Assembly: GCA_026985095.1 (NCBI GenBank)
Contig: JALSQW010000019.1
Location: 6,785-70,784, forward strand
Length of the DNA: 64,000 nt
Origin: Acidimicrobiia bacterium
GTDB taxonomy: Bacteria > Actinomycetota > Acidimicrobiia > Spongiisociales > UBA5794
Direction of reading: 5' to 3'
Shown: one piece after another, positions 4,539-61,217 of the stretch
Numbering within the stretch: the first letter of the stretch is position 1
How the letters are laid out: the number at the start of each line of letters is the position of its first letter
The notes under the pieces: generated by a model
Told to the model about the DNA's origin: nothing
Seen by the model: the letters and a program-made list of their open reading frames with translations, nothing else
The model's database searches: none
Made by a program: the position numbers and the translations under genes

Positions 4539-4626
4539 CGGAGACGGTGCGGCGGTGGGGAACCGACTCGCCGTCGGCGGCGAGGCGGTTCATCATGCAG
4601 GAACCCGATCACACGAGGAGCCTGAC

Positions 4627-5355: not shown

Positions 5356-5364
5356 CCTCGATCC

Positions 5365-14136: not shown

Positions 14137-14208
14137 CTCGGTCTCCTCGCTCGGGCGGCGCAGGGTACCGGGCTTTGCGCGGCCCCCGCGAACCGATACA
14201 TTCGCGCC

Positions 14209-23340: not shown

Positions 23341-24204
23341 TCACGACGATGGAGGAGGGCGAACGCCCTCCTCCATCGCGTCCGACGTCCGCATCGCCAA
23401 CGCCACGCCGACCACCGCCACGATCCCTCCCGCCGCGATCTCGGCCAGGCTCCACCTCCGCAGCGGCGCGACGAGGCGCCCGACGAGCATCAGCGCGACC
23501 TCCTGGCGGCCGCCGTCGCCCAATCCGGCGACGGCGGAACCGCCGATCCGGCCCGAGACCGCCAGCGCAACGAGCCCGCTTCCCAAGATCCCTACGCCCA
23601 CGGCCGCCACGGCCGCCGATGGGGACCGCCGCACCACGGAACCCACGACCACGACCGCGGCGACGAGGCCGACCCACGCGACGACGACCAGGCCCACCAG
23701 GTCCGGCGGTCGGGGCAGCCGGTTGGCCTCCACCAGCACCACCGGAGCGAACACTGCATCGGGGACGGCATCGGCGAGTTCGGGAGCCACCGCTTCGAGC
23801 GGCGCCAGGATGTCGTCTCGCCACGGTGCCAGTTCGATCACCACCGGGGCGCCGTCGGCCTCCAGCAGCACCCGATGCAACGACCGCGCGGAGAACTCCG
23901 CCAGCGGCTCGAACACCGGCGAGGCCAGCACCCCGGCGATCGCGGATTCCGCAGGTGCCCGCACGATCGCGAAGGCCGGTTCGGCCGCGACGATCCGATC
24001 GACGATCTCGCTCGCCAGGTTCCTCCGGGACGGCTCCGAGCGCAGCACGTCGCTCGCCTCAACCACGAATCGGTCCTCGTCGAGGACCATGGTCGCGTAC
24101 CACCGCCCGACGGTGACCACGGCCCCGAACACGACGAGCAGCACGACCACGGCGACACTCGGGCCGACGACGCGGCGGCTCTGCGGGGACGGTGACTGAC
24201 GCAT
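23341..24204 (-). CDS. Hypothetical membrane protein
   Basis: N-terminal TM helix (VAVVVLLVVFGAVVTV) and a C-terminal hydrophobic cluster. No recognisable family. Divergent from the ATPase gene at 24390. Confidence 0.5.
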   Translation of the reverse strand: MRQSPSPQSRRVVGPSVAVVVLLVVFGAVVTVGRWYATMVLDEDRFVVEASDVLRSEPSRRNLASEIVDRIVAAEPAFAIVRAPAESAIAGVLASPVFEPLAEFSARSLHRVLLEADGAPVVIELAPWRDDILAPLEAVAPELADAVPDAVFAPVVLVEANRLPRPPDLVGLVVVAWVGLVAAVVVVGSVVRRSPSAAVAAVGVGILGSGLVALAVSGRIGGSAVAGLGDGGRQEVALMLVGRLVAPLRRWSLAEIAAGGIVAVVGVALAMRTSDAMEEGVRPPPSS

Positions 24205-27746: not shown

Positions 27747-28796
27747 TCAGACGAGGTCCTGTTCGCGGATGCCGAAGCTCGGATGGCGGAGACGGCACAA
27801 CGCGAGCTTCTCGAGCTGACGGATCCGTTCCCGCGTGAGGTTGAACTCCTCGCCGATCTCCTCGAGCGTCCTCGGCACCCCGTCGTAGAACCCGTACCGC
27901 AGCGCCAGGATCCGACCCTCCCGCTCGGGAAGCCGCTCGATCGAGATGCGGAGGCTGTTGGCGATGTCCATCTCCTCGGTCACCTTGACCGGATCGACCG
28001 CGTCCTCGTCCTCGATGAAATCACCGAGCTGGGCACCATCCTCACCGATCGGCTGCTCCAACGACACGGTGTCGGCCACACCGAGGGCGAGCTCCACCTT
28101 GGCCACCTCGACGCCCGCCTCCTCGGCGATCTCCTCCGGCTTGGGATCGCGACCGAGTTCCGCCTTGAGACTGGCCTGAGCAGCTCGCACCGCCGCCAGC
28201 GTGTCGTGGAGATGCACGGGGATGCGAACGGTCCGGGACTTGTCGGCGATGGCCCGAGTGATCGCCTGACGGATCCACCACGTGGCGTACGTCGAGAACT
28301 TGAACCCCTTGCGCCAATCGAACTTCTCGACCGCCCGGATCAACCCCAGGTTCCCCTCCTGGATGAGATCGAGGAAATCGATCCCGGAGGTGTTGGCGTA
28401 ACGACGAGCATTGGCCACCACGAGGCGCAGGTTGGCGGTGAGGAAGGCATCCTTCGCCTCCTGGCCACGCCTGACCTGGCGGCGCAGGGCGATCTCCTCC
28501 GCCTTGCCCTGGTACTCGCCCGCATCGAGCTTCTCCTGGGCACGTTGACCGCCCTCGATCTTCTGGGCGTACTCGACCTCCTTCTCGGCGGTCAGCAGCT
28601 CGTACTCGCCGATCGCCGTCAGGTACTGGCTGACCAGGTCGGTGGTGAGCCTGCCACGGTCGTCGGTGAGCTTGTTGCGGTCCCGATCACGTCGGGTCCG
28701 GGTCAGCGTGTCCCGCTCGATCCGTTCCTTGGCTTCCTCCCGTTCGCGCTGCGCGCGAGTCACCACCGCCTTGCGCGGCTTTCCCACTGACGCCAT
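27747..28796 (-). CDS. RNA polymerase sigma-70 factor, group 1/2 (RpoD/SigA-SigB-like)
   Basis: Regions 1.2 to 4 are present: region 2 [30 protein letters not shown] and region 4 [25 protein letters not shown] used the internal ATG at 28796 behind a GGAGG Shine-Dalgarno. Confidence 0.85.
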
Positions 28797-29024
28797 GTAC
28801 GAGTCCTCCAGCGAAGGTTTCCGAACCACCAGCCCCCGATCCCGTACGGGGCGGGACACGAGCGCACCCCACTATCACATACGACGGGCCGTTTGTGAAC
28901 CCCCTGATTTCCCAGGAGGCAGCGAGGTCGCCAGCCTATCGGCGGGAACCAGGTAGCCGCAGCCGACCACCACACCGCCACACATCCACTCAACCGGCCG
29001 AGATCCCCGACCGATGAGCATCGG

Positions 29025-42089: not shown

Positions 42090-43139
42090 ATGACGACATC
42101 GGTCGATCTCCCACTCTGCGTCTTCTGCGGCACCGCACGACCTGCCGACATCTCCCGCTGCCCCACCTGCGGCCGGACCTGGATCGACATCCGGGTCGGA
42201 GAAGCCGTCACCGTCGGCGTCGGTGTCGCCAACGGCACCGAACCCGCCCCCACCGTGAGACCGGTCGCCACTGCACCGACCGCCGAGGAACCCGACCACG
42301 TCACCGAGGAGATCCCGATCGTGGCTGCGCCGGTGGACGCCCCGGGCGACATCGACCCGTGGGAGCCACCCAAACGACAGCGTGACCTCTCGAAATGGGC
42401 GATCCCCGCCATCCTCGCGACCGCGGTTCTCGTCGTCTATGGGCTCATCGCCTCCGGCCTCCTCGACGGCGACGAACCGGCCGGGACCACGACCGCGTCG
42501 GTCGTGCCCGTCACCACGCTGCCCCCGGCACCCGAGACGACCGTACCGACCACGACCGAAGTACCCACCACCACCGAGGCCACGACCACGACGACCACCA
42601 CGATCCCCGCCCCCGGGCCGGACGCGTTCGCCGCCTCCGGCTCACCCATCGCGCCCTCGCAGCTCGATCTCAAGGCCGGAGGCATCGGACCTCTCGCCAT
42701 CGGCGCCCCGCTCGGAGAGGTCGCGGGCCGCCTCACCGCCAGTCTCGGCACCCCCGACGAGACCGGATACGCCACCGCCGAAACCGGCCTGTGTCCGGGC
42801 ACCGACGGCCTCTGGGTCCGGTGGGGCTCATTGACGGCGCTCTTCGCAGGCGATCTCGACACGGGAACGTTCGCCGGTTACCGCTACGAGCATCCCTCGA
42901 CCGGTCCGACGGACCAGGCGACGCTGGAAACGCTGTCCGGACTGACCCTCGGCGACACGGTGGCCGACCTCAATCGCATCTACTCGGCCTACCGGATCGT
43001 CTACGGTCCCGTCGACGGTCGCCTCGCGTTCGAGCTGTACGACGGCGACGAGCTGCTCCTGTGGGGTCCCGTCAGCTCCGCAGAGGACACGGGCACCGTC
43101 CTGGGCATCTACTCGCCGATGGTGTGCGCCGAGAACTGA
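42090..43139 (+). CDS. Hypothetical bitopic membrane protein: cytoplasmic C4 zinc-ribbon, one TM helix, Thr/Pro-rich linker, conserved extracytoplasmic two-Cys domain (paralog A)
   Basis: CVFCGT-x9-CPTCG N-terminal zinc ribbon. TM helix AIPAILATAVLVVYGLIASGLL. Linker TTTASVVPVTTLPPAPETTVPTTTEVPTTTEATTTTTTTIPAPGP. The C-terminal domain shares GRLTAS.G.P, G.C.G, ETLSGL..GDT, LLLWGPV and VLGI..P.VC with the protein at 45190. Confidence 0.6.
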   Translation: MTTSVDLPLCVFCGTARPADISRCPTCGRTWIDIRVGEAVTVGVGVANGTEPAPTVRPVATAPTAEEPDHVTEEIPIVAAPVDAPGDIDPWEPPKRQRDLSKWAIPAILATAVLVVYGLIASGLLDGDEPAGTTTASVVPVTTLPPAPETTVPTTTEVPTTTEATTTTTTTIPAPGPDAFAASGSPIAPSQLDLKAGGIGPLAIGAPLGEVAGRLTASLGTPDETGYATAETGLCPGTDGLWVRWGSLTALFAGDLDTGTFAGYRYEHPSTGPTDQATLETLSGLTLGDTVADLNRIYSAYRIVYGPVDGRLAFELYDGDELLLWGPVSSAEDTGTVLGIYSPMVCAEN

Positions 43140-43218: not shown

Positions 43219-45153
43219 ATGCCAGCGCACCGCAACCGATCTCGACTGCGCCGCATCTTCGCACCCGGCAACGTCCTCTCCGTCGCTGCCGGCACGATCG
43301 TCTTCGTCCTCGGGGTCGTCGGCTGGCCGACCAACCGTGGCGCGTTGATCTCCGCGATCGTCGCGGCGACGGTCTCCGGAGCGGTCTGGCTCGTCTGGTG
43401 GAGGACGTCGAGCCCCCCTCGGCTCGATCGACTCGTCTCGGCCGATGAGCTGGGATCCATCCCGACCGACGACTCCAGTCCCGCCCCGACCATCGCCGAC
43501 CCGACCTCCGGAAGCGCCGACTCGTACCGGCGGACCCTGTCGGCCCTCGAGAGCAGAACCCACGGCCAGGTCCTCCTCGTCACCTCGCCATCACCCGGGC
43601 AAGGAGCGACCACCGTCGCCATCAACCTCGCGGCCGCGGCGACCCAAGCCGGCCGTCGGGTGCTCCTCGTCGACGGAGACCCCGCCCGCGGAGGGGTGTC
43701 TCGGTTCCTCGGCACCGGCCCCGAACCGGGCCTGACCGACCTCGCGGAAGGAGCCGACCTGGGTGATGTCGCCCGGCTGTGGGAGGTCGGACCCGACGCG
43801 CTCCTGCCGGTGATCCCGTCGGGTTCCGCCTCCGACGATCCCGCCGAGGTGCTCTCGAACCCGCGGCTGGGCGAGATGATCGAACGGGTCGGAGAGCGAG
43901 CCGACCTGGTGCTCGTGGACTCGCCGCCGGTCCTGTGGAACGGAGCATCGGGACCCCTCGCGACCCATGCCGACGGGGCGCTCCTCGTCGTCTCCGAGCA
44001 CGCGCCGCGCGACGGGGTCTCCGAGACGGCCGAGCGTCTCGAGGCCGCCGGAGCGCCCGTCCTCGGGTACGTGGTGAACCGTGCGGACATGCGGAGTCGG
44101 TTCTGGCGGCACCCGCTGGTTCGGGCCGCCAAGCGGACCCTCGGCGCCTTCGTCGTCATCGTCACCTTGTACGCAACCTTCACCGGCGCCCAGCTCCTGC
44201 GGTCCTGGCAGGACGTCGACCGTGGCATCCTCAACGTCGACGCGGCACAGTCCCTGCTCCCCCTCCCCGAGATCGGCCCCGATCTCATCGAAGGTGACGG
44301 CGGCACCAACGAGGAGCTCGCCGGTTTCGTCGTCGGCACACCGGCGACCGGCGAGACCCAGGCCTTCCTGGTGATCGGCGGCGACCAGGTCGCCGGCGCT
44401 GCCGACGTGATCATGCTGATGGTCCTCCCCGGCGACGGGTCCAAGCCCTTCATGGTGTCGCTCCCCCGCGACCTGTACCTGCCGAATCGTTGTACCGGGG
44501 GCTACACGAGGATCAACGCCACCATCCACGGCTGCGACGACATCAGCGGACCGACGCTCCTCGCCTTGACCGTCGAGGATTTCACCGGGATCGAGGTCGA
44601 CCACTTCGCGATGTTCGACTTCGAGGGGTTCAAGCGGATCATCGACGGCGTAGGCGGAGTCGAGATCTGCGTCGAGTACCCGGTCCGGGACAGCAAGTCC
44701 GGCCTCGACCTTCCCGCCGGATGCACCAACGCCACCGGCGAGCAGGCCCTCGCCTGGGTTCGTTCGCGCCATACCCAGCAGAAGGTCGACGGCCGGTGGC
44801 GCTCGGTGCCCGGAGCCGGAGATCTTCTCCGCAACCAGCATCAGCAAGAGGTCATCTTGCAGTTGTTCTCGAAGCTCAAGACCTTCGACTCACCGTCGGA
44901 TCTGACCCGCAAGGTCGCCGAGCTCAGCGACAACTTCACGCTCGACGACCAGCTGGGCCTTACCGACGCCATCGCCCTCGCGTGGCAGCTCCGTGACCTC
45001 GACCTGAAGGACATCAACCGCCTGACGATCCCTGTCAGGCTCACCAGCAACAAGAAGGGCCAATCGATCCTCGTTCCGACGGCACCGTTCGCCGACGTCC
45101 TCGCCGAGGCCTACCCCGACCTCGCCGGATCTCCCTCGGCAGCCGCCAACTGA
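43219..45153 (+). CDS. Fusion protein: Wzz/CpsC-like TM hairpin + degenerate BY-kinase (CpsD/Wzc-like ParA/MinD-fold) domain + TM helix + extracytoplasmic LytR-CpsA-Psr (LCP) phosphotransferase domain
   Basis: Two N-terminal TM helices. The BY-kinase catalytic-domain pattern has K to A in Walker A (LLVTSPSPGQGATTVAINLAAAATQAG, nt 43597-43611 read as GGA GCG ACC), Walker A' RVLLVDGDPARG, Walker B DLVLVDSPPV, then LLVVSEHAPRD...VLGYVVNRAD. No C-terminal Tyr cluster. A third TM (LGAFVVIVTLYATFTG) precedes the LCP domain (FLVIGGD...VIMLMVLPGDGSKPFMVSLPRDLYLP...DHFAMFDFEGFKRIIDGVGGVEICVEYPV...GEQALAWVRSRH). Confidence 0.85.
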   Translation: MPAHRNRSRLRRIFAPGNVLSVAAGTIVFVLGVVGWPTNRGALISAIVAATVSGAVWLVWWRTSSPPRLDRLVSADELGSIPTDDSSPAPTIADPTSGSADSYRRTLSALESRTHGQVLLVTSPSPGQGATTVAINLAAAATQAGRRVLLVDGDPARGGVSRFLGTGPEPGLTDLAEGADLGDVARLWEVGPDALLPVIPSGSASDDPAEVLSNPRLGEMIERVGERADLVLVDSPPVLWNGASGPLATHADGALLVVSEHAPRDGVSETAERLEAAGAPVLGYVVNRADMRSRFWRHPLVRAAKRTLGAFVVIVTLYATFTGAQLLRSWQDVDRGILNVDAAQSLLPLPEIGPDLIEGDGGTNEELAGFVVGTPATGETQAFLVIGGDQVAGAADVIMLMVLPGDGSKPFMVSLPRDLYLPNRCTGGYTRINATIHGCDDISGPTLLALTVEDFTGIEVDHFAMFDFEGFKRIIDGVGGVEICVEYPVRDSKSGLDLPAGCTNATGEQALAWVRSRHTQQKVDGRWRSVPGAGDLLRNQHQQEVILQLFSKLKTFDSPSDLTRKVAELSDNFTLDDQLGLTDAIALAWQLRDLDLKDINRLTIPVRLTSNKKGQSILVPTAPFADVLAEAYPDLAGSPSAAAN

Positions 45154-45189
45154 CCGTACAATGGCCGCCGGACCTGGAGGACCCCGACC

Positions 45190-46104
45190 GTGAGCGATCC
45201 CCGCGAACCCTACGAACCGAATCCGCCCGGCTGGACCGATCCGTACGCCGACCTGGCGGATCTGACCGGCGACGAGCCCATGCCGCGACTCGAGGATCCC
45301 TCGGTACCCCCGGCCCAGCCGCCCGCGTCACCGCTGCTCACGGGACTCATCATCGGGCTCCTGCTGATCGCGCTGTCGGTGGCCGTCTTCCAGCTCCTCG
45401 GAAAGGACGCCACCGACGAAGCGACCGCCCCCGGCACCGCCACGACGGCGCCGGGCGTCACCGCACCGGGCGACGCCACGTCGACCACCGGCGGCACCGG
45501 CAGTTCCACCTCGACACCGGGCACCACCGTCACCACCCTTCCATCGACGCCGTACCCCCCGATCGAACCTGCCATCCCGGTGGATCGTCTGAAGCTGATG
45601 AGCAACGGGATCCGGGTCAACAAGAACGATGTCAAGGATTTCGTCTTCGGAACCCCCGCAGGGGACGTGATCGGTCGACTCACCGCCAGCTTCGGCAGCC
45701 CCAGCGAGGACACCGGATGGCAGGTGTCGACCGGCCGATGGGGGGTCTGCGAAGGCGACCAGGAACGGATCATCCGCTTCGGACCGTTCCATGCGATCAT
45801 CACCCAGCCCGGCGGCAAGGACACCTTCAACGGCTACCGGCAGGACATCACCGTCGGGGATCTCGACTCGCCCGCCAAGGACTTCGAGACCCTCAGCGGC
45901 CTCAAGGCCGGCGACACGATCAAGCAGCTCGAGGAGATCTACGCCAACCAGGACGTGACGTACTCGACCGATCCTCTCCTCGGCGACATCTTCGAGCTTC
46001 GGTCCAAGCAATCGAGCGAGCTGCTGCTGTGGGGTCCGGTCCGGGGGATCTCGGAGGACGATCAGGTCCTCGGCATCTTCGCTCCCGACGTCTGCGACCG
46101 CTGA
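45190..46104 (+). CDS. Hypothetical bitopic membrane protein with Pro-rich cytoplasmic N-terminus, one TM helix, Thr/Gly/Pro-rich linker and the same conserved extracytoplasmic two-Cys domain (paralog B)
   Basis: TM helix LLTGLIIGLLLIALSVAVFQLL. Linker ATAPGTATTAPGVTAPGDATSTTGGTGSSTSTPGTTVTTLPSTPYPP. The C-terminal domain aligns with paralog A (GRLTASFGSPSEDTG...GVCEG...FNGYR...ETLSGLKAGDT...LLLWGPV...VLGIFAPDVC). Confidence 0.6.
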   Translation: MSDPREPYEPNPPGWTDPYADLADLTGDEPMPRLEDPSVPPAQPPASPLLTGLIIGLLLIALSVAVFQLLGKDATDEATAPGTATTAPGVTAPGDATSTTGGTGSSTSTPGTTVTTLPSTPYPPIEPAIPVDRLKLMSNGIRVNKNDVKDFVFGTPAGDVIGRLTASFGSPSEDTGWQVSTGRWGVCEGDQERIIRFGPFHAIITQPGGKDTFNGYRQDITVGDLDSPAKDFETLSGLKAGDTIKQLEEIYANQDVTYSTDPLLGDIFELRSKQSSELLLWGPVRGISEDDQVLGIFAPDVCDR

Positions 46105-46145
46105 GGATCCGACGCGACCTGCGGGCCGACTAACATCGCCGCACC

Positions 46146-46874
46146 ATGGAGCGACACCCAGCTGCAGCCTTCATCAACGGCGCCGTGGCAGGCACCGTCA
46201 TCGCCCTCGGCCTGGCCGTCTGGTTCACGGCGTTCGTCGCGACCGAGACGGTCACCGCCGTCGAGCTCGCCCCTGGGGTGGCCCAACCGGTGTTCGTCGC
46301 CACCGCCACGTCGATGTGGCTCCTCGTGGTGGTCGTGTCGTTCCTCGGCGGTCTGGCGCTGACCGGGTTGGCGTACGGGATCGGCAGGATCCTCGAGCCC
46401 GAGGCACGGCGCTTCCCGCTCCGGTACCTGATCCCGATCGGCGTGATCTTGTCGATCGTCCTCGGGTTCGCAGCGACCGCGTTCTCCGTGACCGTTGCCG
46501 GCGACATCTCCATCGACGGGATCGTGACCATCCCGGTGGGGACGATGTTCATCATCGCCGGGATCGCCGGCCTAGTCGTCGGTACCATCACGGTACCCGT
46601 CGTCGACGCCCTGGCTCGACCCGCGGTGGTCGGCGGGAACGAGGCGTTGCCGGCATCCGCACGGGACGTGTGGACCGACATGGCCCGGGCCGTCGGGGTA
46701 CCCCTCATCGCCGTCATCATCATCGTGCTGCTGGCCGTCTCACTCGCCCAGGTGCTGTTGAACTCGCCATCGCCGACCGTGTCGGTCGCGGTGTTCGCCC
46801 TCGTGGCAACAGCCATCCTCGGAGGGACCACGGCCCTCGCGCTGCGCCCGTGGGATCGGAACGGAACGACCTGA
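46146..46874 (+). CDS. Hypothetical polytopic membrane protein (about 6 TM helices), last gene of the four-gene plus-strand module
   Basis: 242 aa, strongly hydrophobic, with no recognised family. 42 bp downstream of paralog B on the same strand. Confidence 0.5.
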   Translation: MERHPAAAFINGAVAGTVIALGLAVWFTAFVATETVTAVELAPGVAQPVFVATATSMWLLVVVVSFLGGLALTGLAYGIGRILEPEARRFPLRYLIPIGVILSIVLGFAATAFSVTVAGDISIDGIVTIPVGTMFIIAGIAGLVVGTITVPVVDALARPAVVGGNEALPASARDVWTDMARAVGVPLIAVIIIVLLAVSLAQVLLNSPSPTVSVAVFALVATAILGGTTALALRPWDRNGTT

Positions 46875-46882
46875 CCGCGCCG

Positions 46883-47206
46883 CTAGGAAGCGTCCTCGAT
46901 CGCGGTGGCCACGAATCGCCCGTCGGGCGCCTTCTCGTAGAAGACCCTGACCGGGTCGCCCGACACGACGTGGGACGTCAGATGACTCAGCGGCCCCCCA
47001 TCGAACGTGACCTCCTCGGCCGGGAAGAACCGCACCTGTGTGCCCTCCTCGGTGAGGAGGGTGAACGATCGGACGGTCGTCAGGTCCCCGTCCACCTCCA
47101 GCACGACCCCGACCGTCGATGGCCCCTTGCCGCCGCCGCATCCGGCGATCGTCGACGCCGCGATCAGCACCACCGCCACGAGGGAGGCGAGACGGATCAC
47201 CCTCAT
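46883..47206 (-). CDS. Small lipoprotein (hypothetical)
   Basis: Lipobox LIAASTIAGCGGG. 107 aa. Its start overlaps the ctaG stop (ATGA). Only the 3' part of the 279-aa track ORF is used. Confidence 0.55.
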   Translation of the reverse strand: MRVIRLASLVAVVLIAASTIAGCGGGKGPSTVGVVLEVDGDLTTVRSFTLLTEEGTQVRFFPAEEVTFDGGPLSHLTSHVVSGDPVRVFYEKAPDGRFVATAIEDAS

Positions 47207-48024
47207 CGTCGGGGACGTTGGAGAACCGCCGGCCCGCGCTCGAACCGTTGCTCCTCGTTGTACCACGAGAACCAGACCCACCCGATGAATCCCCACAGCC
47301 ACAGGGTGCCGCCGATCTTCATGATCAACCCGGCGAGGATCTGGTCGGTCATCACATCGATCCCCCACAGTCGCGGGAACGTCTCGTAGATCGGGTACAG
47401 CGGCGACGACCCGAGGGTCATGAACGCGGCGGGGATGTTCGGCACGATGCCCTGCAGGAACAGGTACCCCATCTTGCCCATCGGGGTCAACGTCCGGGTG
47501 TCCGGGATCGGCTCCATCACCGGCCACCACATCATGATGGCCGTCAGGAACAAGGTGGCATGGGCGAAGAAATGGAAGAAGCTGTTGGTGTCCATCGCCA
47601 CGACCACCGACGGCACATGGATGAACGCCAACCACACGTTGAACGCCAGCAACGCCACGATGGGCCGGGTGAGGACCTTCACGAGCGGCAGCACCGGGCG
47701 CACGATCGCACGCAGGAACCACCAGGGGATGCCGACCAGCAGCATCGGAGGAACCACGAAGGCGAACATCAGGTGCTCCACCATGTGGAACATGAACAGA
47801 CGCTGCTCCGCGATGTCGTGGAACGGCCAGATCGACACGATGACCAGCACCACCAACCCGCCGTGGAACAGCAGGCGTTGGCGCGCCGTGACGGGAGGTT
47901 CGTCGACCGGGCAGTAGCGGCCCGCGAGCCTACGGATGCCGTACTCGTAGCCCACCGCGAGCGCCCCGATCAGGCCGAGGACATCCAGGTGAAGGTGGAA
48001 CGGAGGAAGGCCGCCTGCACCCAT
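47203..48024 (-). CDS. ctaG: Caa3-type cytochrome c oxidase assembly factor CtaG-like membrane protein
   Basis: Polytopic His/Trp-rich membrane protein (HDIAEQRLFMFHMVEHLMFAFVVPPMLL, HFFAHATLFLTAIMMWWPV) matching the Caa3_CtaG family. I used the internal ATG at 48024. The upstream extension in the track ORF is an implausible W/C/S-rich sequence. Confidence 0.75.
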   Translation of the reverse strand: MGAGGLPPFHLHLDVLGLIGALAVGYEYGIRRLAGRYCPVDEPPVTARQRLLFHGGLVVLVIVSIWPFHDIAEQRLFMFHMVEHLMFAFVVPPMLLVGIPWWFLRAIVRPVLPLVKVLTRPIVALLAFNVWLAFIHVPSVVVAMDTNSFFHFFAHATLFLTAIMMWWPVMEPIPDTRTLTPMGKMGYLFLQGIVPNIPAAFMTLGSSPLYPIYETFPRLWGIDVMTDQILAGLIMKIGGTLWLWGFIGWVWFSWYNEEQRFERGPAVLQRPRR

Positions 48025-48025
48025 G

Positions 48026-48313
48026 TCAGAAGGCGCGGAAGCTCGCCAGGACCACGGCGAACACGACGGTCGCACCGGCCAGGCCGATGAGGAAATAGAA
48101 CCGATACGCCTTGAGGTCGTAGCGAAGGTGCATGAACACGGCCACCACCACCGCGAACTTGGCGGAACCAAGGAGGATCAGAAGGACGGCTCGGATCGGA
48201 TCGAGCGCATCGATGTACGGGACGGTGACCTCGATGGCGGTGACGATCCCGAGGAAGAGCGCGATCAGCCAGTAGGTCTTGGCCGTCGGATGGGCGTGGG
48301 TCGCGGTAGCCAT
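48026..48313 (-). CDS. Cytochrome c oxidase subunit IV (small prokaryotic/actinobacterial type)
   Basis: 95 aa with two TM helices. It sits directly downstream of ctaE in the oxidase operon, and HAHPTAKTYWLIALFLGIVTAIEV resembles bacterial subunit IV proteins. Confidence 0.7.
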   Translation of the reverse strand: MATATHAHPTAKTYWLIALFLGIVTAIEVTVPYIDALDPIRAVLLILLGSAKFAVVVAVFMHLRYDLKAYRFYFLIGLAGATVVFAVVLASFRAF

Positions 48314-48315
48314 GG

Positions 48316-48917
<602 letters not shown>

Positions 48918-48918
<1 letters not shown>

Positions 48919-50816
48919 CAGTGGGCCTCCTTGGTGATCGGTTCGCCCGCCCACCCCATGAACCCCCACAGGGAGACGATCGCGCCGAGGGCGAGGAGAC
49001 CGAACCCGATGGCGCCCGAGGAGATGAACACGAGGCCGGCTCCGAGGATGACCACACCAGCCGACGCGATGATCGGGAAGTAGGAGGGCGACGGCATGTG
49101 GATGTCGTGCGCATCTGCGTCGCCGTCTTCCCCTCCGGTGTCGGTGTCGACCGTCAACGCCCCGCCGCTCACCTCGGGCATCTTGACGGCTCGCCCGTCC
49201 TCGTCGATCCCGTACTTGCGGTACCAGAAGTCGTCGACGTGGTGAACGACGGGGACCTCGTCGAAGTTGTGCACCGGCGGCGGTGACGATGTGGTCCATT
49301 CCAGGGTCCGACCGTCCCACGGATCGTTGCCGGCCGGCTCGCCGTTGCGCCAACTCCGGATGATGTTCCAGATGAACACGAGGACGCCGACGGCGATCAG
49401 GTAGGACCCGATCGTCGACATCAAGTTCCATCCGTCCCATCCGAGCCCGGCGTCGTAGCGGTACGTGCGCCGAGGCATGCCGTCGAGGCCGAGGATGTGC
49501 TGTGGGGCGAAGGTGAGGTTGAACCCGATGAGCGTGATCCAGAAGTGCCATTTCCCGATCGTCTCGCTCAGCATCTTGCCGGTCCACTTCGGGAACCAGT
49601 AGTAGGCGCCGGCCATGTAGCCCAGCACCGCCCCACCGAACAACACGTAGTGGAAGTGGGCGACGATGTAGTAGCTGTCGTGCTGTTGGGTGTCGGCGGG
49701 CACGATCGAGTGGGTGACACCCGACAGGCCACCGATGACGAACATGGAGATGAACCCGAGGGAGAACAGCATGGGGGTGGTGAGCTTCAATCGCCCACCC
49801 CACGTCGTGCCGATCCAGTTGAAGATCTTCACCCCGGTGGGGATGGCGATGAGCATCGTGGCGAGACCGAACCCGGCTTCGGCGACCGGGCCGAGCCCCG
49901 CGGTGAACATGTGGTGCGCCCAGACACCGAACCCGAGGAAGCCGATGGCGATCCCCGAGAAGACGACGAACGCGTACCCGAACAGCGGCTTGCGGCTCAT
50001 GACCGGCAGGATCTCCGAGACGATGCCCATGGCCGGCAGGATCAGCACGTACACCTCGGGATGCCCGAAGATCCAGAACAGGTGTTGCCACAGGAGCGGA
50101 TCGCCTTGCGCCTGGGCGGCGTAGAACAACGTTCCGAAGTTGCGGTCGAACAGCAACTGCCAGAGGCCGACGCCGATGACCGGCAACGAGAGGATCAGCA
50201 GGAACGAGGTGACGACCGTCATCCACACGAAGACGGGCATCCGCATCAGGCTCATCCCCGGTGCCCGCATCGTGAAGATCGTGGCGATGAAGTTGATGGA
50301 ACCCGCCAGCGACGCCACACCGAGGAGCTGCGCGCCGACCGAGTAGTAGTCCATCCTGACGTACTCGGTGAGCTGGGTCGACAGCGGCGCGTAGCCGACC
50401 CAGGCGCCGTCGGGGGCGCCTCCGAACAGGAAGGACGTGTAGAGGAACAGGGCGCTGAAGAAGAACAGCCAGAAGGCGAAGGCGTTGATGCGAGGGAACG
50501 CCACGTCCCTGGCTCCGATCTGGAGCGGGACGAAGTAGTTCTGGAAGGCGGCGGCGATCGGCATGATCACGGCGAACACCATGGTCAGGCCGTGCATGGT
50601 GAAGATCTGGTTGTACGCCTCGGCCGACAGCACCGTCCCGTTGGGGCCGGCGAGCTGCGTCCGGATCAACAGCGCTTCGAAGCCGCCGACCAGGAAGAAG
50701 ATGAAGGCGGCGACGGCGTACATGATGCCGATCCGCTTGTGGTCGACGGTGGTGATCCAACTCCACACGCCCCGGTCGGCCGCGGCCGGTGCCTGCTCTC
50801 TCGTCGCTACCGCCAT
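48918..50816 (-). CDS. ctaD: Cytochrome c oxidase subunit I (heme-copper oxidase catalytic subunit) with about 60-aa C-terminal hydrophobic extension
   Basis: 632 aa. WITTVDHKRIGIMY, WFFGHPEVYVLILPAMG, HHMFT, HFHYVLFGG. The C-terminal tail PSPSYFPIIASAGVVILGAGLVFISS...LWGFMGWAGEPITKEAH adds two extra TM-like segments. Confidence 0.95.
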
Positions 50817-54294: not shown

Positions 54295-54451
54295 ATCGTG
54301 AGGTTATCGGGTCGTGGGAGATGTCCAAGGAGGCCTCTGCCCCCCGGCTCGCGCCATCCCGTCGTCCCGCCGAGGCCCCGAGGACACCGACGAGGGAACG
54401 CACCGGTGGCCGGTTGGTAGCCTGGGCGTCACGATCGACAAGGAGCAGTGC

Positions 54452-56233
54452 ATGGCGGCGACCGATCTGGCGACCCTGCAACGGCAGGCGTGTGACCGCT
54501 ACGGCGACAACCCGCTGTTCGGGACCCGCGCCGAGGACGGGACGTGGAGCTGGTTGACCTACCGCGACTTCGGCGCCATGGTCGAGCGCGCCCGGTCGGG
54601 TCTCGCCCACCTCGGTGTGGGCAAGGGCGACCGGGTAGCCACCATCTCGGACAATCGCGTCGAATGGGCCGTCGGCGCCTACGCCACCTACGGGCTCGGG
54701 GCGGCCTGGGTGCCGATGTACGAGAAGCAGCATCCCTCCGAGTGGCACTACATCTTGTCCGATTGCGGTGCCCGTATCGTGTTCGTCGGCGACGACAAGA
54801 TCCGGATGCGACTCCACGAGCTCCGCGACGACCTCCCGATCGAACATGTCGTCGTCATGGAAGGTCCGGCCGGTGAGGGCGCCATCGGCTTCGAGGAGTT
54901 CCTGACCCTCGGCGGCCCACCGCCCGATCTGGTGCCCGACTCCGACGACCTCGCCGGCTTGATCTACACCTCGGGCACCACGGGTAACCCGAAGGGCGTG
55001 ATGCTGTCTCACGGCAACATCACCAGCAACATCAACGCCCTCAACGAGGTGTTCCCGCTCGAGGAATCCGACCGGTCGGCGTCGTTCCTGCCCTGGGCAC
55101 ACTCGTTCGGTCAGACCGTCGAGCTGCACACGCTGTTCTCTCAGGGGGCATCGACCGGCCTGACATCCGCCAAGACCCTGCTGCGCGACCTGCCGGAGAT
55201 CCGACCGACGATCCTCGTTTCGGTCCCCGCGGTCTTCAACCGCATCTACGACGCCCTCCTCAAACGCATGAGCGACGAGAGCGGCGTGACCCGTGCGATC
55301 TTCAACGCCGCGTTGGCCAACGAGAACCGACGCCGAGAGCTCCACGAGCAGGGCAAGACGACCCGCTGGGTCGAGATGAAGCACGATCTGTTCGACAAAC
55401 TCGTGTTCTCGAAGGTCAGGGACGGTTTCGGGGGGCGCCTCAGGTACGCGTTCTCGGGCGGCGCGGCGATCTCGGGCGAGGTCGCTCGCCTCATCGATTC
55501 GCTCGGGATCCTCGTGTACGAGGGCTACGGCCTGACCGAGACGTCACCGGTGGTGACCGCCAACACCCGCGACGCTCGCAAGCTCGGCAGCGTCGGCCGA
55601 CCCCTCCCGGGGGTTCGGGTCGACATCGACACGGACGCCACGGGCGATCCGTCGGTGGGTGAGATCGTCGTTCACGGACCGAACGTGATGATGGGCTACT
55701 TCGGGCTTCCGGAGGAGAACGCCAAGGTCTTCACCGACGACGGCGGGTTCCGGACCGGGGATCTGGGACATCTCGACGACGAGGGATTCCTGTTCATCCG
55801 AGGGAGGATCAAGGAGCAGTACAAGCTGGAGAACGGCAAGTACGTGGTGCCGTCGCCGATCGAGGAGCAGCTGACCCTGTCGGGCTTCATCAGTCAGGCG
55901 ATGGTCTACGGCGAGCAACGGCCGTTCAACGTGGCGGTGATCGTGCCCGACACCGAGGCCGTGCGGAAGTGGGCCGACGCCGAGGGGATCACGACCCACG
56001 ACCTAGGAGAACTGCTGGAACATCCCAAGGTGCGCGAGCTGTTCGAAGACGAGATCTCCAAGGCGTCCACCAAGATCAAGGGATACGAGCGCGTGAAGCG
56101 GTTCGTGCTGGTGTCGGAGGAGTTCACTCCCGAGAACGGCCTCCTCACGCCGAGCTTGAAGGTGAAGCGTCGATCGGTCCTGTCGACCTACGGCGACGAC
56201 ATCGACCGCCTGTACGAAGACGCGATGCACTGA
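54452..56233 (+). CDS. Long-chain-fatty-acid--CoA ligase (AMP-dependent synthetase/ligase)
   Basis: AMP-binding motifs LIYTSGTTGNPKGVMLSH, YEGYGLTET, GDLGHLDDEGFLFIRGRIKE, plus a C-terminal lid region. AAGGAGCAG Shine-Dalgarno before the ATG at 54452. Confidence 0.9.
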   Translation: MAATDLATLQRQACDRYGDNPLFGTRAEDGTWSWLTYRDFGAMVERARSGLAHLGVGKGDRVATISDNRVEWAVGAYATYGLGAAWVPMYEKQHPSEWHYILSDCGARIVFVGDDKIRMRLHELRDDLPIEHVVVMEGPAGEGAIGFEEFLTLGGPPPDLVPDSDDLAGLIYTSGTTGNPKGVMLSHGNITSNINALNEVFPLEESDRSASFLPWAHSFGQTVELHTLFSQGASTGLTSAKTLLRDLPEIRPTILVSVPAVFNRIYDALLKRMSDESGVTRAIFNAALANENRRRELHEQGKTTRWVEMKHDLFDKLVFSKVRDGFGGRLRYAFSGGAAISGEVARLIDSLGILVYEGYGLTETSPVVTANTRDARKLGSVGRPLPGVRVDIDTDATGDPSVGEIVVHGPNVMMGYFGLPEENAKVFTDDGGFRTGDLGHLDDEGFLFIRGRIKEQYKLENGKYVVPSPIEEQLTLSGFISQAMVYGEQRPFNVAVIVPDTEAVRKWADAEGITTHDLGELLEHPKVRELFEDEISKASTKIKGYERVKRFVLVSEEFTPENGLLTPSLKVKRRSVLSTYGDDIDRLYEDAMH

Positions 56234-56315
56234 GCCGGAGTACCGCCAGGCGCCGGGCCGGAATACCGCCGGGCCTCGATGCGGTTGTCTCGGCGACCGG
56301 AGGGTGGAGGACCAC

Positions 56316-57626
56316 ATGCACGACCGCAAGGCGGCGCTCCTACGCGAGCTCGAGGAACGACGGGCCAGGAGCCATGAGCTGCTGGCGGTCCTCGACGACG
56401 AGACCCTGCACCGACAGTTCGATCCGATCATGTCGCCGCTGGTATGGGATGTCGGACACATCGGCAACTTCGAGGAGATCTGGCTGCTTCGCCGCCTGGG
56501 CGGTCATGCGCCCCACGACCTGCGCTACGACGAGCTGTACAACCCCTTCGACAATCCCCGATGGGTGCGTGGGGATCTCCCGCTGCTCGATCGGGCCGCG
56601 GCCACCGCCTACGCGGCGGAGGTCAGGGGTGAAGCCCGCCACCTCCTCTCACGCCTGGAGTTCGACCCCACCGATCCGCTCCTCCGCGACGGGTACGTCG
56701 TCGGCATGGTCGCCCAGCACGAAGCGCAGCATCAAGAGACCATGCTCCAAGCCCTCGATCTGGCGCCGGACCTCGGACCGTATGCCCTCGCCGCCCGTCC
56801 CCTGCGTCGCCGTGCCCGCGCGGCGGACGACACCGAGCGGGTCACGGTCGACGGCGGGCCTTTCGATCTGGGGACCGACGATACGGCAACCACGTACGAC
56901 AACGAACGGCCTCGACATCGGGTCGAGCTGGCCGGCTTCCAGATCGACCGGTTCCCGGTCACCAACCGCCGCTACGGTCGGTTCGTCGCCGAGGGCGGCT
57001 ACCGGCGCCGGGAGCTGTGGAGTGACGACGGTTGGGCGTGGCGCCAGCAGGTCGATCACGACGCTCCACAGGGATGGATCCCGGAACCGGACGGTTCCTG
57101 GTCGGTCCGTCGCCTCGGTTGGCGCCGACCGTTGGATCCCGCCGAACCGGTGATGCACGTCTCGTGGTTCGAAGCCGAGGCGTTCGCCCGGTTCGAAGGC
57201 GGGCGCCTACCGACCGAAGCCGAGTGGGAGAAGGCGGCGACATGGGGCCCCCGAGCGAATCGGCCGCGACGCTACCCGTGGGGCGATGCTCCGCCGACAC
57301 CCGATCGGGCCAATCTCGGTCACCACGGTTGGGGTCCGGCGCCGGTGGGCTCGTATCCCGCCGGGGCCTCCGCCTACGGGGTCGAGCAGCTCGTCGGCGA
57401 CGTCTACGAATGGACGGCTTCCCGGTTCCTCCCCTACCCCGGCTACCGCACGTTCCCGTACCCGGAGTACTCCGAGGTCTTCTTCGACGATCCCGAGTTC
57501 CGGGTCCTGCGCGGCGCGTCGTGGGCGACGTCGCCGAACGTGGCCCGAGCGACCTTCCGCAACTGGGACTACCGGAAGCGCCGCCAGATCATGTCCGGGA
57601 TCCGACTCGCGTGGGACCTGCGGTGA
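56316..57626 (+). CDS. egtB: Ergothioneine biosynthesis sulfoxide synthase EgtB (DinB_2 + FGE-sulfatase domains)
   Basis: N-terminal DinB_2 (WDVGHIGNFEEIWLL, VAQHEAQHQETM) and a C-terminal FGE-sulfatase-like domain (NERPRHRVELAGFQIDRFPVTNRRY...MHVSWFEAEAFARFEGGRLPTEAEWE...LRGASW). GTGA overlap with egtD. GGAGG Shine-Dalgarno before the ATG at 56316. Confidence 0.85.
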   Translation: MHDRKAALLRELEERRARSHELLAVLDDETLHRQFDPIMSPLVWDVGHIGNFEEIWLLRRLGGHAPHDLRYDELYNPFDNPRWVRGDLPLLDRAAATAYAAEVRGEARHLLSRLEFDPTDPLLRDGYVVGMVAQHEAQHQETMLQALDLAPDLGPYALAARPLRRRARAADDTERVTVDGGPFDLGTDDTATTYDNERPRHRVELAGFQIDRFPVTNRRYGRFVAEGGYRRRELWSDDGWAWRQQVDHDAPQGWIPEPDGSWSVRRLGWRRPLDPAEPVMHVSWFEAEAFARFEGGRLPTEAEWEKAATWGPRANRPRRYPWGDAPPTPDRANLGHHGWGPAPVGSYPAGASAYGVEQLVGDVYEWTASRFLPYPGYRTFPYPEYSEVFFDDPEFRVLRGASWATSPNVARATFRNWDYRKRRQIMSGIRLAWDLR

Positions 57627-58585
57627 GCTTCGAGCTGATCCGCCTCTCCGATCCCGTCGACCATCGGGCCGAGCTGGCCGTCGATGTGAGACACGGGCTG
57701 GGTCGTCGCCCGAAGCGGCTGCCTTCCAAGTGGTTCTACGACGATCGCGGTTCGGCGTTGTTCGAGCAGATCACCGAGCTCCCCGAGTACTACCTGACCC
57801 GCGCCGAGACCGAGATCCTCCGGGCTCGGGCCGATGAGATCGTCGCGACGGTGGCACCGGACGAGATCGTGGAGCTGGGTTCCGGCTCGTCGACGAAGAC
57901 CCGGATGCTGCTCGAGGCGATGCGCCGGACCGGCACCGGGTGTCGCTACGCCGCCATCGACGTGTCCGAGGGAGCGCTGAAGGATGCCGGCTCGAGCCTG
58001 GTCGACGACTACCCGTGGCTCGAGGTCGAAGGCGTGCTGGGCGATCTCGGGAGGGATCTTCCACGGGTTCCGCGCCACGGCCGCCGGCTGGTGATCTTCC
58101 TCGGCTCCACCGTCGGCAATCTCGCGCCGAGGGACCGGCCGGCGTTCTTCCGCACGATCCGGGAGGGTCTCGAGGCCGATGACGCCTTCCTGCTCGGGGT
58201 CGACCTCGTCAAGGACGAGGCCACGATGGTGGCGGCCTACGACGACGCGGCCGGGGTGAGCGCGGCGTTCAACCGCAACGTCCTGGTGGTGATCAACCGG
58301 ACCCTGGACGCCGACCTGCCCATCGACGCCTTCGAGCACGTGACCCGTTGGGTTCCGGGTGCCTCCGCGATGGTCCAGAGCCTCCGTGCCACTCGCCGGG
58401 TCACCGCCAGGATCGGGGCGCTCGATCTCGAGGTGTCCCTTGCCGAGGGCGAGGAGATCCACACCGAGTGGTCCTGCAAGTTCACCGAGGAGCATCTGGC
58501 CGACGAACTCGATGACGCGGGCCTCACTATCGAGCGCTGGTGGACCGACGTGGGGGACCGTTTCGGGTTGGCCCTGATCCGCTGA
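57623..58585 (+). CDS. egtD: L-histidine N-alpha-methyltransferase EgtD
   Basis: LPSKWFYDDRGSALFEQITELPEYYLTRAE...ELGSGSSTKTRMLLEA...FLGSTVGNL are canonical EgtD motifs. Only the 3' 320 aa of the 517-aa track ORF is used. GTG start. Confidence 0.9.
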   Translation: MSFELIRLSDPVDHRAELAVDVRHGLGRRPKRLPSKWFYDDRGSALFEQITELPEYYLTRAETEILRARADEIVATVAPDEIVELGSGSSTKTRMLLEAMRRTGTGCRYAAIDVSEGALKDAGSSLVDDYPWLEVEGVLGDLGRDLPRVPRHGRRLVIFLGSTVGNLAPRDRPAFFRTIREGLEADDAFLLGVDLVKDEATMVAAYDDAAGVSAAFNRNVLVVINRTLDADLPIDAFEHVTRWVPGASAMVQSLRATRRVTARIGALDLEVSLAEGEEIHTEWSCKFTEEHLADELDDAGLTIERWWTDVGDRFGLALIR

Positions 58586-58603: not shown

Positions 58604-59236
58604 TCAGACCGACAGCGTGACCGAGCCGAAGTCGGGGATCTGGACCAGCTCGATGTCTGCGTCGACGGCGAGGCCCATCCCGGCGATGGTGTAGGTCATC
58701 TCCCGACCCGGGCCACTCAGCGGCCAGTCGTGGATCGGGACGACGTACCGGGGGCGAACCAGACGCACCCGGTCCACCGCCGCGGTGACCGAGCCCCAGG
58801 GAGCGACGAAGGGCATCGCCAGGATCGGCATCGTCTCGACGAAACCGTGGCTGTCCCCGGGATGCGACAGTGCCTCGGCGACGTGGAAGCCGGTGTTGTC
58901 GGGTCCGGGACCCATCGGGACGCGCTCGTGAGGTGCGGCGAACCGGGGGGTGCCTTCGGTGACCGCCGGGATCCCTGCCTCGGCGAGAACGCCGGCGAGG
59001 GCCCCGGTGGTCTCGACCACGGCACCGGGGGACCGCTCGAGGACGGCCGCGACCAGGTCGACGGCGACGTGGTCCGCGTGTTCGTGGGTGATGAGGATCC
59101 GATCGATCCCTTCGAGGTGTGCCAGGTCGAGGCGGTCGTCGTTCCACGTGAAGACCCCGGGGTCGAGGAGGAGTCGCGATCCGTCGACCTCGACGAGCAG
59201 GCAGGCATGGACGAGCTTGGTGATGGTGACCTCCAT
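58604..59236 (-). CDS. MBL-fold metallo-hydrolase
   Basis: HEHADHV (HxHxDH) motif and overall beta-lactamase-fold pattern. 210 aa. Confidence 0.8.
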   Translation of the reverse strand: MEVTITKLVHACLLVEVDGSRLLLDPGVFTWNDDRLDLAHLEGIDRILITHEHADHVAVDLVAAVLERSPGAVVETTGALAGVLAEAGIPAVTEGTPRFAAPHERVPMGPGPDNTGFHVAEALSHPGDSHGFVETMPILAMPFVAPWGSVTAAVDRVRLVRPRYVVPIHDWPLSGPGREMTYTIAGMGLAVDADIELVQIPDFGSVTLSV

Positions 59237-59317: not shown

Positions 59318-59413
59318 CGCGGAGGTGGACGGGAATCGAACCCGCCAGGGCACATGCGCACCCTCACCGGTTTTGAAGACCGGGGGACCCACCAGGCGTC
59401 CGGACACCTCCGC
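59318..59413 (-). tRNA. selC: Candidate selenocysteine tRNA (tRNA-Sec, anticodon UCA), about 95 nt with long variable arm
   Basis: Hand fold of the minus strand: GCGGAGGTG...CACCTCCGC forms a perfect 8-9 bp acceptor stem. Anticodon stem CCGGT/ACCGG with loop CTTCAAA (U33, anticodon TCA, A37). 7-bp variable-arm hairpin AGGGTGC-GCAT-GTGCCCT. T-arm GGCGGG-TTCGATT-CCCGTC. Discriminator G, no encoded CCA. The D-arm folds only as a 4-bp stem by hand, so the call needs software confirmation. Confidence 0.6.
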
Positions 59414-59505: not shown

Positions 59506-59937
59506 TCAGGACGTGATGTACCGCTCGAGCTGGTCGATCAGATCCTGCTGCTCGGCGATGACGGCCTTGACGATGTCGCCGATCGACACGATCCCGACCA
59601 GCCGGTCGCCGTCCATGACCGGTAGGTGTCGGATCCGATGGTCGGTCATGAGCTGCATGCACTCCGAGACCGTCGTCTGCGGCGAGATCGTGAACACCTC
59701 CGACGTCATGATGTCCTCGACCCGGGTCTCCTTCGACCCCCGATCCATGAGGATCACCTTGCGGGCGTAGTCACGCTCGGACATGATGCCGACCAACCGA
59801 TCACCGTCGAGGACGACCACCGCCCCGATGTTGTGGTCCGCCATCCGCCGAAGCGCCTCGTACACGGTGTCGTCGGGTGCCACCCCGACGATCTCGGGGG
59901 GCTTGTCGCCGAGGATCCCGGCCACGGTTCGTTGCAT
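59506..59937 (-). CDS. CBS-domain pair protein
   Basis: 143 aa with two CBS motifs (IGAVVVLDGDRLVGIMSERD and HLPVMDGDRLVGIVSIGD). Confidence 0.8.
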   Translation of the reverse strand: MQRTVAGILGDKPPEIVGVAPDDTVYEALRRMADHNIGAVVVLDGDRLVGIMSERDYARKVILMDRGSKETRVEDIMTSEVFTISPQTTVSECMQLMTDHRIRHLPVMDGDRLVGIVSIGDIVKAVIAEQQDLIDQLERYITS

Positions 59938-59981
59938 CGCTCCTCCTTACGCCCCAATGTACCAATCGAGGAGGCCGCCTG

Positions 59982-61217
59982 TCAGGCCAGGACGGTCTTG
60001 TCCTCCATCGCCCGGGGTTCCCGGTCGACGGCGAAGAAGCTCATCGGCACGTCCGTGTCGTACTCGGCTCGCTCGCCGGTGAGGTACGCGGCGACCATGG
60101 CTCCGATCATGGGGCTCTCCTTGAAGCCGTGGCCGGAGAAGCCGTTGGCGACCACGAAGCCCTCCAGGTCGGTGGGACCCACCACCGGCAGGACGTCCTG
60201 GCGGTTGACGGTGTACAGGCCGGCCATCCCGCCGAGCCGCCCCCGGTGGGGAAGCGATGGGATCCGGTGATGGAGTGCGTGGATCTTGGTGTCGACGAAC
60301 GCCCGGTCGGCGTTCGTGTCGTAGGTGTCGGGATCCGTCGCCTCCCGCTCGTCCTCCTCGAGGATCGAGCCGGCGATGATCTGCTGGTCGCCCGCCTCGG
60401 GACGGAAGTAGATCCCTCCGGCGGCGTCGCCGACGACCGGGAGCGGTCGGGGAACCTCCGCGGGCAGGTCCCGGTACATGACCTGGACGCGGGTGGGGAC
60501 GAGGTCCCACCCCAGTTCGACGCCGGCCATCGCCGAGACCCGGTTGCACCATGGGCCGGCAGCGTTGACGATCGTCCCGGCCGACAGCCGGGTTCCGTCT
60601 GCCAGGGTCACCCCGGTGGCTCGACCTCGGGTCACGGTCACGTCGACGACCTCGCTGCGGAGCCGCACGTCCACTCCCTTCGCCCGGGCCGCCTCGGCCA
60701 GATCCTCGAGGGCGCCGGTGGCATCGAAGTACCCGGTGTCGCGTTCGAGGAGGAACGCCTCACCGTCGCGGCATTCGTGCGGGACCTCGCCGGTGAGGTC
60801 GAAGGGGACCATGCAGGTCGACAAGGCGGGGAACAGCTCATGAACGTCGGCCGCAGCGAGCACGGCCGCGTCGATGCCTTCGGCGGCGAGACGATCGCGA
60901 TCGGCGGCGACCACGGCAGGGTCGTCGTCGAGCATCCACAGGACCCCGATGGGATGGAACACGGCCCGGGGGGAGTCGAGGCCCGTGTACTCGGCCCAGT
61001 TCCGGAACACGACGTTGGCATCGCGGGCGATCCGCACGTTCTCGATGAGCGAGTACCGCTGTCGGGTGATCGCCGCCGACGCACCGGTGGACCCCTCACC
61101 GAGCCCGGCGCCCTTGTCGAGGACCACGACCGACAGGGCGCTGCGACGGGCGATCTGGTAGGCGATCGACATTCCGATGATGCCCCCACCGACGACGACG
61201 ACGTCCGCGGTCTCCAT
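59982..61217 (-). CDS. FAD-dependent oxidoreductase (DAO family; sarcosine/glycine oxidase beta-subunit-like)
   Basis: N-terminal dinucleotide-binding DVVVVGGGIIGMSIAYQIA and a C-terminal GHGFKESPMIG motif typical of the DAO family. Confidence 0.8.
   Translation of the reverse strand: METADVVVVGGGIIGMSIAYQIARRSALSVVVLDKGAGLGEGSTGASAAITRQRYSLIENVRIARDANVVFRNWAEYTGLDSPRAVFHPIGVLWMLDDDPAVVAADRDRLAAEGIDAAVLAAADVHELFPALSTCMVPFDLTGEVPHECRDGEAFLLERDTGYFDATGALEDLAEAARAKGVDVRLRSEVVDVTVTRGRATGVTLADGTRLSAGTIVNAAGPWCNRVSAMAGVELGWDLVPTRVQVMYRDLPAEVPRPLPVVGDAAGGIYFRPEAGDQQIIAGSILEEDEREATDPDTYDTNADRAFVDTKIHALHHRIPSLPHRGRLGGMAGLYTVNRQDVLPVVGPTDLEGFVVANGFSGHGFKESPMIGAMVAAYLTGERAEYDTDVPMSFFAVDREPRAMEDKTVLA

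Follow-up and report, generated by a model that had tools for sequence, protein, structure and literature searches.

An intact bacterial selC gene between a CBS-domain gene and an MBL-fold hydrolase gene in a high-GC actinobacterium, probably of the Acidimicrobiia

The minus-strand interval 59320-59411 of the DNA analysed here (a 64-kb stretch, hereafter the window) is a real, intact bacterial selC gene, far beyond anything expected by chance, and encodes tRNA-Sec with the anticodon UCA. A sequence-only reading had placed a minus-strand tRNA at 59318-59413 and proposed this identity for it, and both the tRNA and its identity are borne out. ARAGORN, a check proposed with that reading, calls one gene in the 64-kb window, a tRNA-SeC with anticodon tca at 59319..59411 (-). 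When all 4227 Rfam families were scanned at their gathering thresholds, the sole match in the window was the tRNA-Sec family RF01852 at 59321..59411 (-), which scored 73.6 bits against a gathering threshold of 47 bits (E 3.4e-13) and covered model positions 1-91 of 91, in independent agreement with ARAGORN. [quoted passage not shown] Since two independent predictors, all the tRNA-Sec hallmarks and strong covariation on 36 tRNAs agree, the selC reading is well supported. The same gene, identical in sequence, was found in two independent samples. It is an ordinary gene of a known kind and unsurprising to a specialist. Very probably, it is the functional selC of an uncultured high-GC actinobacterium, likely a member of the Acidimicrobiia, whose selA, selB, selD and selenoprotein genes would lie elsewhere in the genome. 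The parts of the gene are as follows.

59320..59411, minus strand: selC, tRNA-Sec(UCA), 92 nt including the discriminator G73 (ARAGORN, Rfam, MFE fold, 3' tail analysis)
59405..59411, minus strand: 5' strand of the acceptor stem, positions 1-7, pairing with 59321-59327 (positions 85-91) (Rfam, fold)
59385..59401, minus strand: D arm, positions 11-27, with a 6-bp stem, a bulged G15 and the 4-nt loop UGGU (Rfam alignment, MFE, covariation)
59367..59383, minus strand: anticodon arm, positions 29-45, with a 5-bp stem and the loop CUUCAAA; UCA at 59374-59376 (ARAGORN, Rfam, fold)
59347..59364, minus strand: long variable arm, positions 48-65, with a 7-bp stem and a 4-nt loop (fold; 5/5 outer pairs covary)
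59328..59346, minus strand: T arm, positions 66-84, with a 6-bp stem and the loop UUCGAUU (fold)

The minimum free energy structure computed with ViennaRNA is a cloverleaf that coincides with the centroid structure, at -47.4 kcal/mol and a z-score of -2.6 relative to shuffled sequences. Several elements of the fold proposed from the letters alone reappear in it, namely the anticodon loop CUUCAAA with its UCA, the T arm GGGTTCGATTCCC, and the 7-bp stem of the variable arm, which closes a 4-nt loop. Two others had to be revised. The D arm had been described as non-canonical, with a 4-bp stem and a 9-nt loop; that fold reaches -44.1 kcal/mol, 3.3 kcal/mol worse than the optimum, and the D arm is instead the 6-bp stem and 4-nt loop typical of tRNA-Sec, in which five of the six pairs covary. 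Its pairs are G11-C27, G12-C26, A13-U25, C14-G24, C16-G23 and C17-G22, with pair probabilities of 0.95-0.99, and it is preceded by the linker U8 C9 C10 that follows the acceptor stem. The acceptor stem, in turn, had been given as a perfect stem of 8-9 bp, a count that includes G-2 and C-1 pairing with G73 and the next base. Comparison with 101 relatives shows this extension to be accidental: no constraint is visible on the two bases just 5' of the tRNA, and 73 of the 101 have G-CCA as their 3' tail. Because the outer two "pairs" use these freely varying flanking bases, the mature tRNA should have seven Watson-Crick acceptor pairs. The discriminator G73 lies at window position 59320, and the acceptor stem is followed by GCGA, so that CCA is not encoded by this selC.

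Ordinary tRNAs have an acceptor/T stack of 12 pairs, and a stack of 13 is a hallmark of tRNA-Sec. The tRNA described here has 13 pairs, seven in the acceptor stem and six in the T stem (G66-C84, G67.U83, C68-G82, G69-C81, G70-C80 and G71-C79). The strict 8/5 partition does not describe it: U8 (59404) faces C84 (59328), a mismatch where the classical 8/5 model has its eighth acceptor pair. The stack is divided 7+6 because G66 can pair with C84 (pair probability 0.95) while U8 opposes the same base. Folding energies favour 7/6 over 8/5 by 2.1 kcal/mol; as 7/6 is also the computed fold of a control tRNA in which A8 could pair with U84, nearest-neighbour folding does not separate the two arrangements. 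The combination U8/C84/G66 occurs in 61 of 121 related selC genes, including those of other Actinomycetota and of a few other phyla, and is therefore a lineage trait and not damage. G66, the base separating the variable arm from the T stem, is present in every one of these genes (121/121), whatever base stands at position 84. Positions 8 and 84 are U8/C84 in 61 genes, C8-G84 in 28 and A8/C84 in 13, so most genes of this sample, which is biased by the search pattern, have no Watson-Crick pair where the bacterial 8/5 model places its eighth "pair". A 7/6 arrangement was published for mycobacterial tRNA-Sec in July 2026 (PMC13449736), and its presence here, in a different class than the mycobacteria and in half of the sampled selC genes, is an incremental extension of that finding.

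Two collections of relatives were assembled. A pattern scan of species-representative genomes gave 120 loci, all of them called tRNA-SeC by ARAGORN. The nearest copies, in an Acidimicrobiia MAG (L032) and in L024, are 89% identical to the window tRNA and have an identical D arm; they are followed by copies in unclassified Actinomycetota/Actinomycetes MAGs and then in Streptosporangiaceae, Kocuria, Arthrobacter, Micromonospora and Mycobacterium. When metagenome contigs were scanned for the D-arm/anticodon-arm sequence of the subtype, 110 loci were obtained, 105 of them with a tRNA-SeC, at up to 95.7% identity. In an alignment of 36 distinct related tRNAs, 94.9% of the stem cells form standard pairs and 14 of the 29 pairs show double-sided, compensatory changes. 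None of 500 shuffles reached any of the observed covariation measures, and pairing was at most 55% in a control in which partners were slid by 1-3 columns. The anticodon stem and the T loop were fixed by the search pattern and are uninformative in this respect; the signal includes five of the six D-stem pairs and all five outer pairs of the variable arm. Among the closest relatives (85-96% identical), every substitution is either compensatory or located in the variable loop. The compensatory changes affect pair 6:86 (U-A/C-G), pair 13:25 (A-U/G-C) and pairs of the variable stem, and at 6:86 the window tRNA has U-A where most relatives have C-G. Such a substitution pattern is the signature expected of a tRNA that has been kept functional.

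The same comparisons bear on the identity of the organism. The GC content of the window is about 68%, and its principal sigma factor (sigma-70, 27747-28859) shares 88.7% identity across 302 residues with its counterpart in an Acidimicrobiia MAG (L044); this MAG also has a selC, about 6.5 kb from its sigma factor gene. The nearest tRNAs also come from Acidimicrobiia and Actinomycetota MAGs, in line with the actinobacterial origin proposed earlier. The organism is thus placed in the Actinomycetota, probably in the Acidimicrobiia.

Among known tRNAs, the closest counterpart in architecture is the mycobacterial tRNA-Sec (PMC13449736), with which the window tRNA shares the UCA anticodon, G73, the long variable arm, the 6-bp D stem, the 7+6 stack and the bases U8, G66 and C84; it is 80% identical to the tRNA of Mycobacterium asiaticum. 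The bulged G15, the U-A pair at 6:86 in place of C-G, and the unencoded CCA set it apart from that tRNA. With the classical 8/5 tRNA-Sec of Escherichia coli it shares the family (RF01852), the anticodon loop, G73, the 6-bp D stem with a 4-nt loop, the long variable arm, the 13 stacked pairs and a G.U as the first pair of the 5-bp T-stem core. The E. coli molecule differs in its Watson-Crick eighth pair (C-G), whereas here U8 stands opposite C84, with which G66 can pair.

The gene lies, as had been proposed, between a CBS-domain gene and an MBL hydrolase gene, in the following order.

59506..59937, minus strand: gene for a CBS-pair protein, directly upstream of selC (Pfam PF00571)
58604..59236, minus strand: MBL-fold hydrolase gene, downstream of selC (Pfam Lactamase_B_3)
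57623-58585, plus strand: egtD, convergent to selC and the MBL gene (TIGR03438, 338 bits vs 291)
56304-57626, plus strand: egtB, convergent to selC and the MBL gene (TIGR03440, 402 bits vs 360)
54314-56233: acyl-CoA ligase gene

Past egtB, the acyl-CoA ligase gene is accompanied by genes for an HTH regulator, TauE, a thioredoxin-like protein and cytochrome oxidase; on the other side, past the CBS gene, lie genes for a DAO-family flavoprotein and a Liv-type ABC transporter. Synteny with this arrangement was confined to metagenome relatives. A CBS homologue, 65-66% identical, adjoins selC in L131, L153 and L180, and these three loci and L124 have the order CBS-selC-acyl-CoA ligase in common with the window, the ligase being 64% identical. 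Neither CBS nor MBL synteny with selC was seen in the 120 genome loci. The MBL gene has no tblastn match in 230 related selC loci, and the syntenic relatives L180, L131 and L124 have only a 71-aa membrane protein in place of MBL-egtD-egtB. Since the MBL gene and the egtB-egtD pair are absent from the syntenic relatives, the stretch 3' of selC is variable.

An acyl-CoA ligase homologue of lower identity (30-38%) also adjoins selC in L029, L061, L003, L120, L037, L020 and L006, among them several Streptosporangiaceae and Actinomycetes genomes, and the linkage between selC and the ligase gene seems to be old within the Actinomycetota. A promoter scan gave a weak match to a promoter-like site at 59956-59985 (-), ahead of the CBS gene, and nothing resembling a terminator was seen between the CBS gene and selC; from this slight evidence, co-transcription of CBS and selC is possible. 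A link between selC and egtB/egtD through selenoneine was considered and rejected as coincidence: the EgtB model is passed with 402 bits vs 360, the SenA model gives only 321 bits against a cutoff of 420, senB and senC are absent, and the syntenic relatives have no egt genes.

The search for the remainder of the Sec machinery covered window coordinates -8002..69937, that is, about 78 kb made up of the 64-kb window and 6 kb and 8 kb beyond its ends. The additional flanks were taken from contig k141_300494 (179,672 bp) of ENA ERZ27262647, in which the window corresponds to 59,530-123,529 read on the opposite strand. Neither SelA, SelB, SelD nor a molybdopterin formate dehydrogenase was detected by Pfam and NCBIfam models on about 55 GC3-selected ORFs of the window. 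The Pfam-verified SelA, SelB and SelD of M. asiaticum and a Flexivirga FdhA fragment gave no tblastn match in the window or in L001, and the 6 kb and 8 kb beyond the window ends held no sel genes. Two scans of the 64 kb plus 6 kb for in-frame TGA codons with coding signal on both sides returned artefacts only: the candidates at 5353(+) and 56651(-) lie in frames antisense to coxE and egtB, the one at 16044(+) belongs to an ORF overlapping a peptidase gene on the opposite strand, and the one at 43137(+) is an ordinary gene end. The absence of selA, selB, selD and any obvious selenoprotein gene from the window, remarked on in the sequence-only reading, is thus confirmed by Pfam, tblastn and TGA scans, and extends over the ~78 kb.

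The same reading had suggested that a gene it placed at 12907-14136, here 12907-14277 (-), could encode a selenocysteine lyase. This suggestion fails, as the SclA model NF040779 gives 93 bits against a cutoff of 525. The product has a class-V aminotransferase fold and matches TIGR01976, "cysteine desulfurase-like protein", with 464 bits vs 352; nothing ties it to selenium.

The rest of the window holds a cox/xanthine-dehydrogenase-type cluster and genes for malic enzyme, a ClC channel, P-type ATPases, the sigma-70 factor and others. The first of these is a complete molybdenum hydroxylase cluster of the cox/xanthine-dehydrogenase family at 1-7445 (-), which continues beyond the window start (L233) and comprises the large, small and FAD subunits, CoxG, XdhC, a CoxE-VWA protein and a CoxD-like AAA protein. 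Four sizeable ORFs have no Pfam match despite good coding signal; those on the plus strand at 42090-43139, 45190-46104 and 46146-46874 flank a ParA/CbiA-LytR_cpsA_psr fusion protein (43219-45153, plus strand), and that at 23341-24204 lies beside a 789-aa HerA/DUF87-like ATPase (24390-26759). The GC skew changes sign near 47-48 kb, at the cumulative skew minimum, within a dip in GC content from about 0.69 to 0.64 (about 44000-50000). This switch could reflect a reversal of gene orientation or mark a feature related to replication; dnaA was not seen.

Separation of selC from the sel genes is not unusual, and a stand-alone selC is normal in the closest lineage. Among 121 related loci, 64 have a sel or fdh gene within the 8-kb tile around selC and 57 have none; as the tiles are fixed, 57/121 is an upper bound on stand-alone selC. 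The ten nearest genome relatives (L032, L024, L036, L014, L105, L100, L015, L019, L044 and L056) are all among those whose tiles are free of sel and fdh genes, and an adjacent sel gene was found in only one of the 105 metagenome relatives. Since the ten nearest genome relatives and nearly all the metagenome relatives have no adjacent sel genes, the stand-alone position of the window selC is unremarkable. The one exception, L152, has the order selC-selD-selA, and its tRNA is 92.6% identical to the window tRNA, differing only in the variable arm. Beside a divergent selD (AIRS and AIRS_C domains, 48.7% identical to mycobacterial SelD), it carries the start of selA (Se-cys_synth_N, 25.6 bits vs 22). 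In M. asiaticum (L021) a tRNA of the same U8/C84/G66 type lies inside a selB-selA-selC-selD-fdh cluster, with Pfam matches to SelA (326 bits), SelB-wing_3 and AIRS/AIRS_C, whereas the window selC stands by itself between the CBS and MBL genes. A parallel in arrangement is Actinomarina, also of the class Acidimicrobiia, whose complete Sec system has a selC that is dispersed from selA and selD and lies in or near variable regions (bioRxiv 10.64898/2026.04.03.716425). The two cases differ in that selA, selB and selD were shown there in complete genomes of ~1.1 Mbp, while the organism of the window has ~68% GC and is seen over ~78 kb.

We also weighed readings in which the gene does not serve selenoprotein synthesis. 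One is that selA, selB and selD were lost and that the tRNA persists as an undecayed remnant. Such a history would account for the Sec machinery and selenoprotein genes not being found in ~78 kb, and the Sec trait is often gained and lost, for example within the mycobacteria (PMC13449736). Yet 78 kb is a small part of a genome, no pair of the tRNA is disrupted apart from lineage-wide features, and its changes relative to close relatives are compensatory or lie in loops. A syntenic copy has moreover been retained while the CBS neighbour diverged to 65% amino-acid identity, and in published surveys selC coincided with selA/selD and selenoproteins (PMC1273633, PMC5330540). We consider this loss unlikely. 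There is only a slim chance of a variant in which selC is under purifying selection in a genome devoid of selA, selB and selD, for instance because the tRNA suppresses UGA once charged by SerRS or because the gene provides an attachment site in the chromosome.

The tRNA might instead belong to one of the classes that resemble tRNA-Sec, being an allo-tRNA, a SelC*-type tRNA-Cys(UCA) or an opal suppressor that inserts serine via EF-Tu. Such tRNAs resemble tRNA-Sec in their D arm, have a long variable arm and in some cases carry the UCA anticodon; they first came to light when tRNA-Sec searches picked them up as false positives (PMC5389517), and the window gene likewise combines a UCA anticodon and a long variable arm with the lack of adjacent sel genes. 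Allo-tRNAs, however, have an acceptor branch of 12 bp, split 8/4 or 9/3, and the SelC* tRNA-Cys has U73 (Mukai et al., NAR 2017, PMC5389517). The window tRNA has neither, and its 13 stacked pairs and G73 largely refute both assignments. These classes have been described in Clostridia, Proteobacteria, Acidobacteria, Firmicutes, Thermodesulfobacteria and Nitrospirae but not in Actinobacteria, and the tRNA type seen here is embedded in bona fide sel clusters, which makes a look-alike very unlikely. Least credible, to the point of being nearly negligible, is an integration remnant or pseudo-tRNA, in which a mobile element with its attachment site in selC would have left a tRNA end behind, either partial or duplicated. 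The lineage does offer a setting for it: in L210, whose tRNA is 95.7% identical, a tyrosine integrase gene (2392-3630, minus strand) lies directly 3' of selC (2253-2345), L024 has a C-terminal integrase fragment (4887-5054) about 2.7 kb downstream of its selC, and the 3' flank of the window selC (MBL, egtD, egtB) differs from that of the syntenic relatives. From these sequences, integration at selC appears to occur in this lineage, as it does in enterobacteria. The window gene itself, though, is full length (Rfam model 1-91 of 91), the window has no second copy of the tRNA 3' end with 3 mismatches allowed, and around selC there are neither meaningful direct repeats nor, in its neighbourhood, an integrase.

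A functional selC, then, is the reading we favour, and what we counted against it is the ~78 kb without sel genes, the U8/C84 mismatch, the unencoded CCA and the weak promoter-like match. In surveys, selC and selB are the signatures of the Sec trait and always coincide with selA, selD and selenoproteins (PMC1273633), and a tRNA-Sec with G73, an essential base, accurately marks genomes that use Sec (PMC5330540). Given that selC is recognised in the literature as a signature of this trait (PMC1273633, PMC5330540), it is reasonable to expect selA, selB, selD and selenoprotein genes elsewhere in the genome of this organism.

With the sequence, fold, conservation and covariation of the tRNA observed as above, we take the steps of processing, charging, conversion and delivery from the established bacterial Sec pathway. 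The selC transcript would be matured by RNase P, by 3' processing and by post-transcriptional addition of CCA, the last being expected because the gene reads GCGA after the acceptor stem. SerRS, recognising G73 and the long variable arm, would charge the tRNA with serine, and SelA, recognising the D arm, would convert Ser-tRNA to Sec-tRNA with selenophosphate made by SelD. The 13-bp stack is rejected by EF-Tu but accepted by SelB, which would then deliver Sec-tRNA to an in-frame UGA followed by a SECIS hairpin, typically in a formate dehydrogenase mRNA.

The 7+6 arrangement is widespread (61/121 sampled genes) and bears on how the tRNA is recognised by RNase P and SelB. For the organism itself, the gene flags a likely user of selenocysteine, and some UGA "stops" in its genome should be re-read as Sec at annotation.
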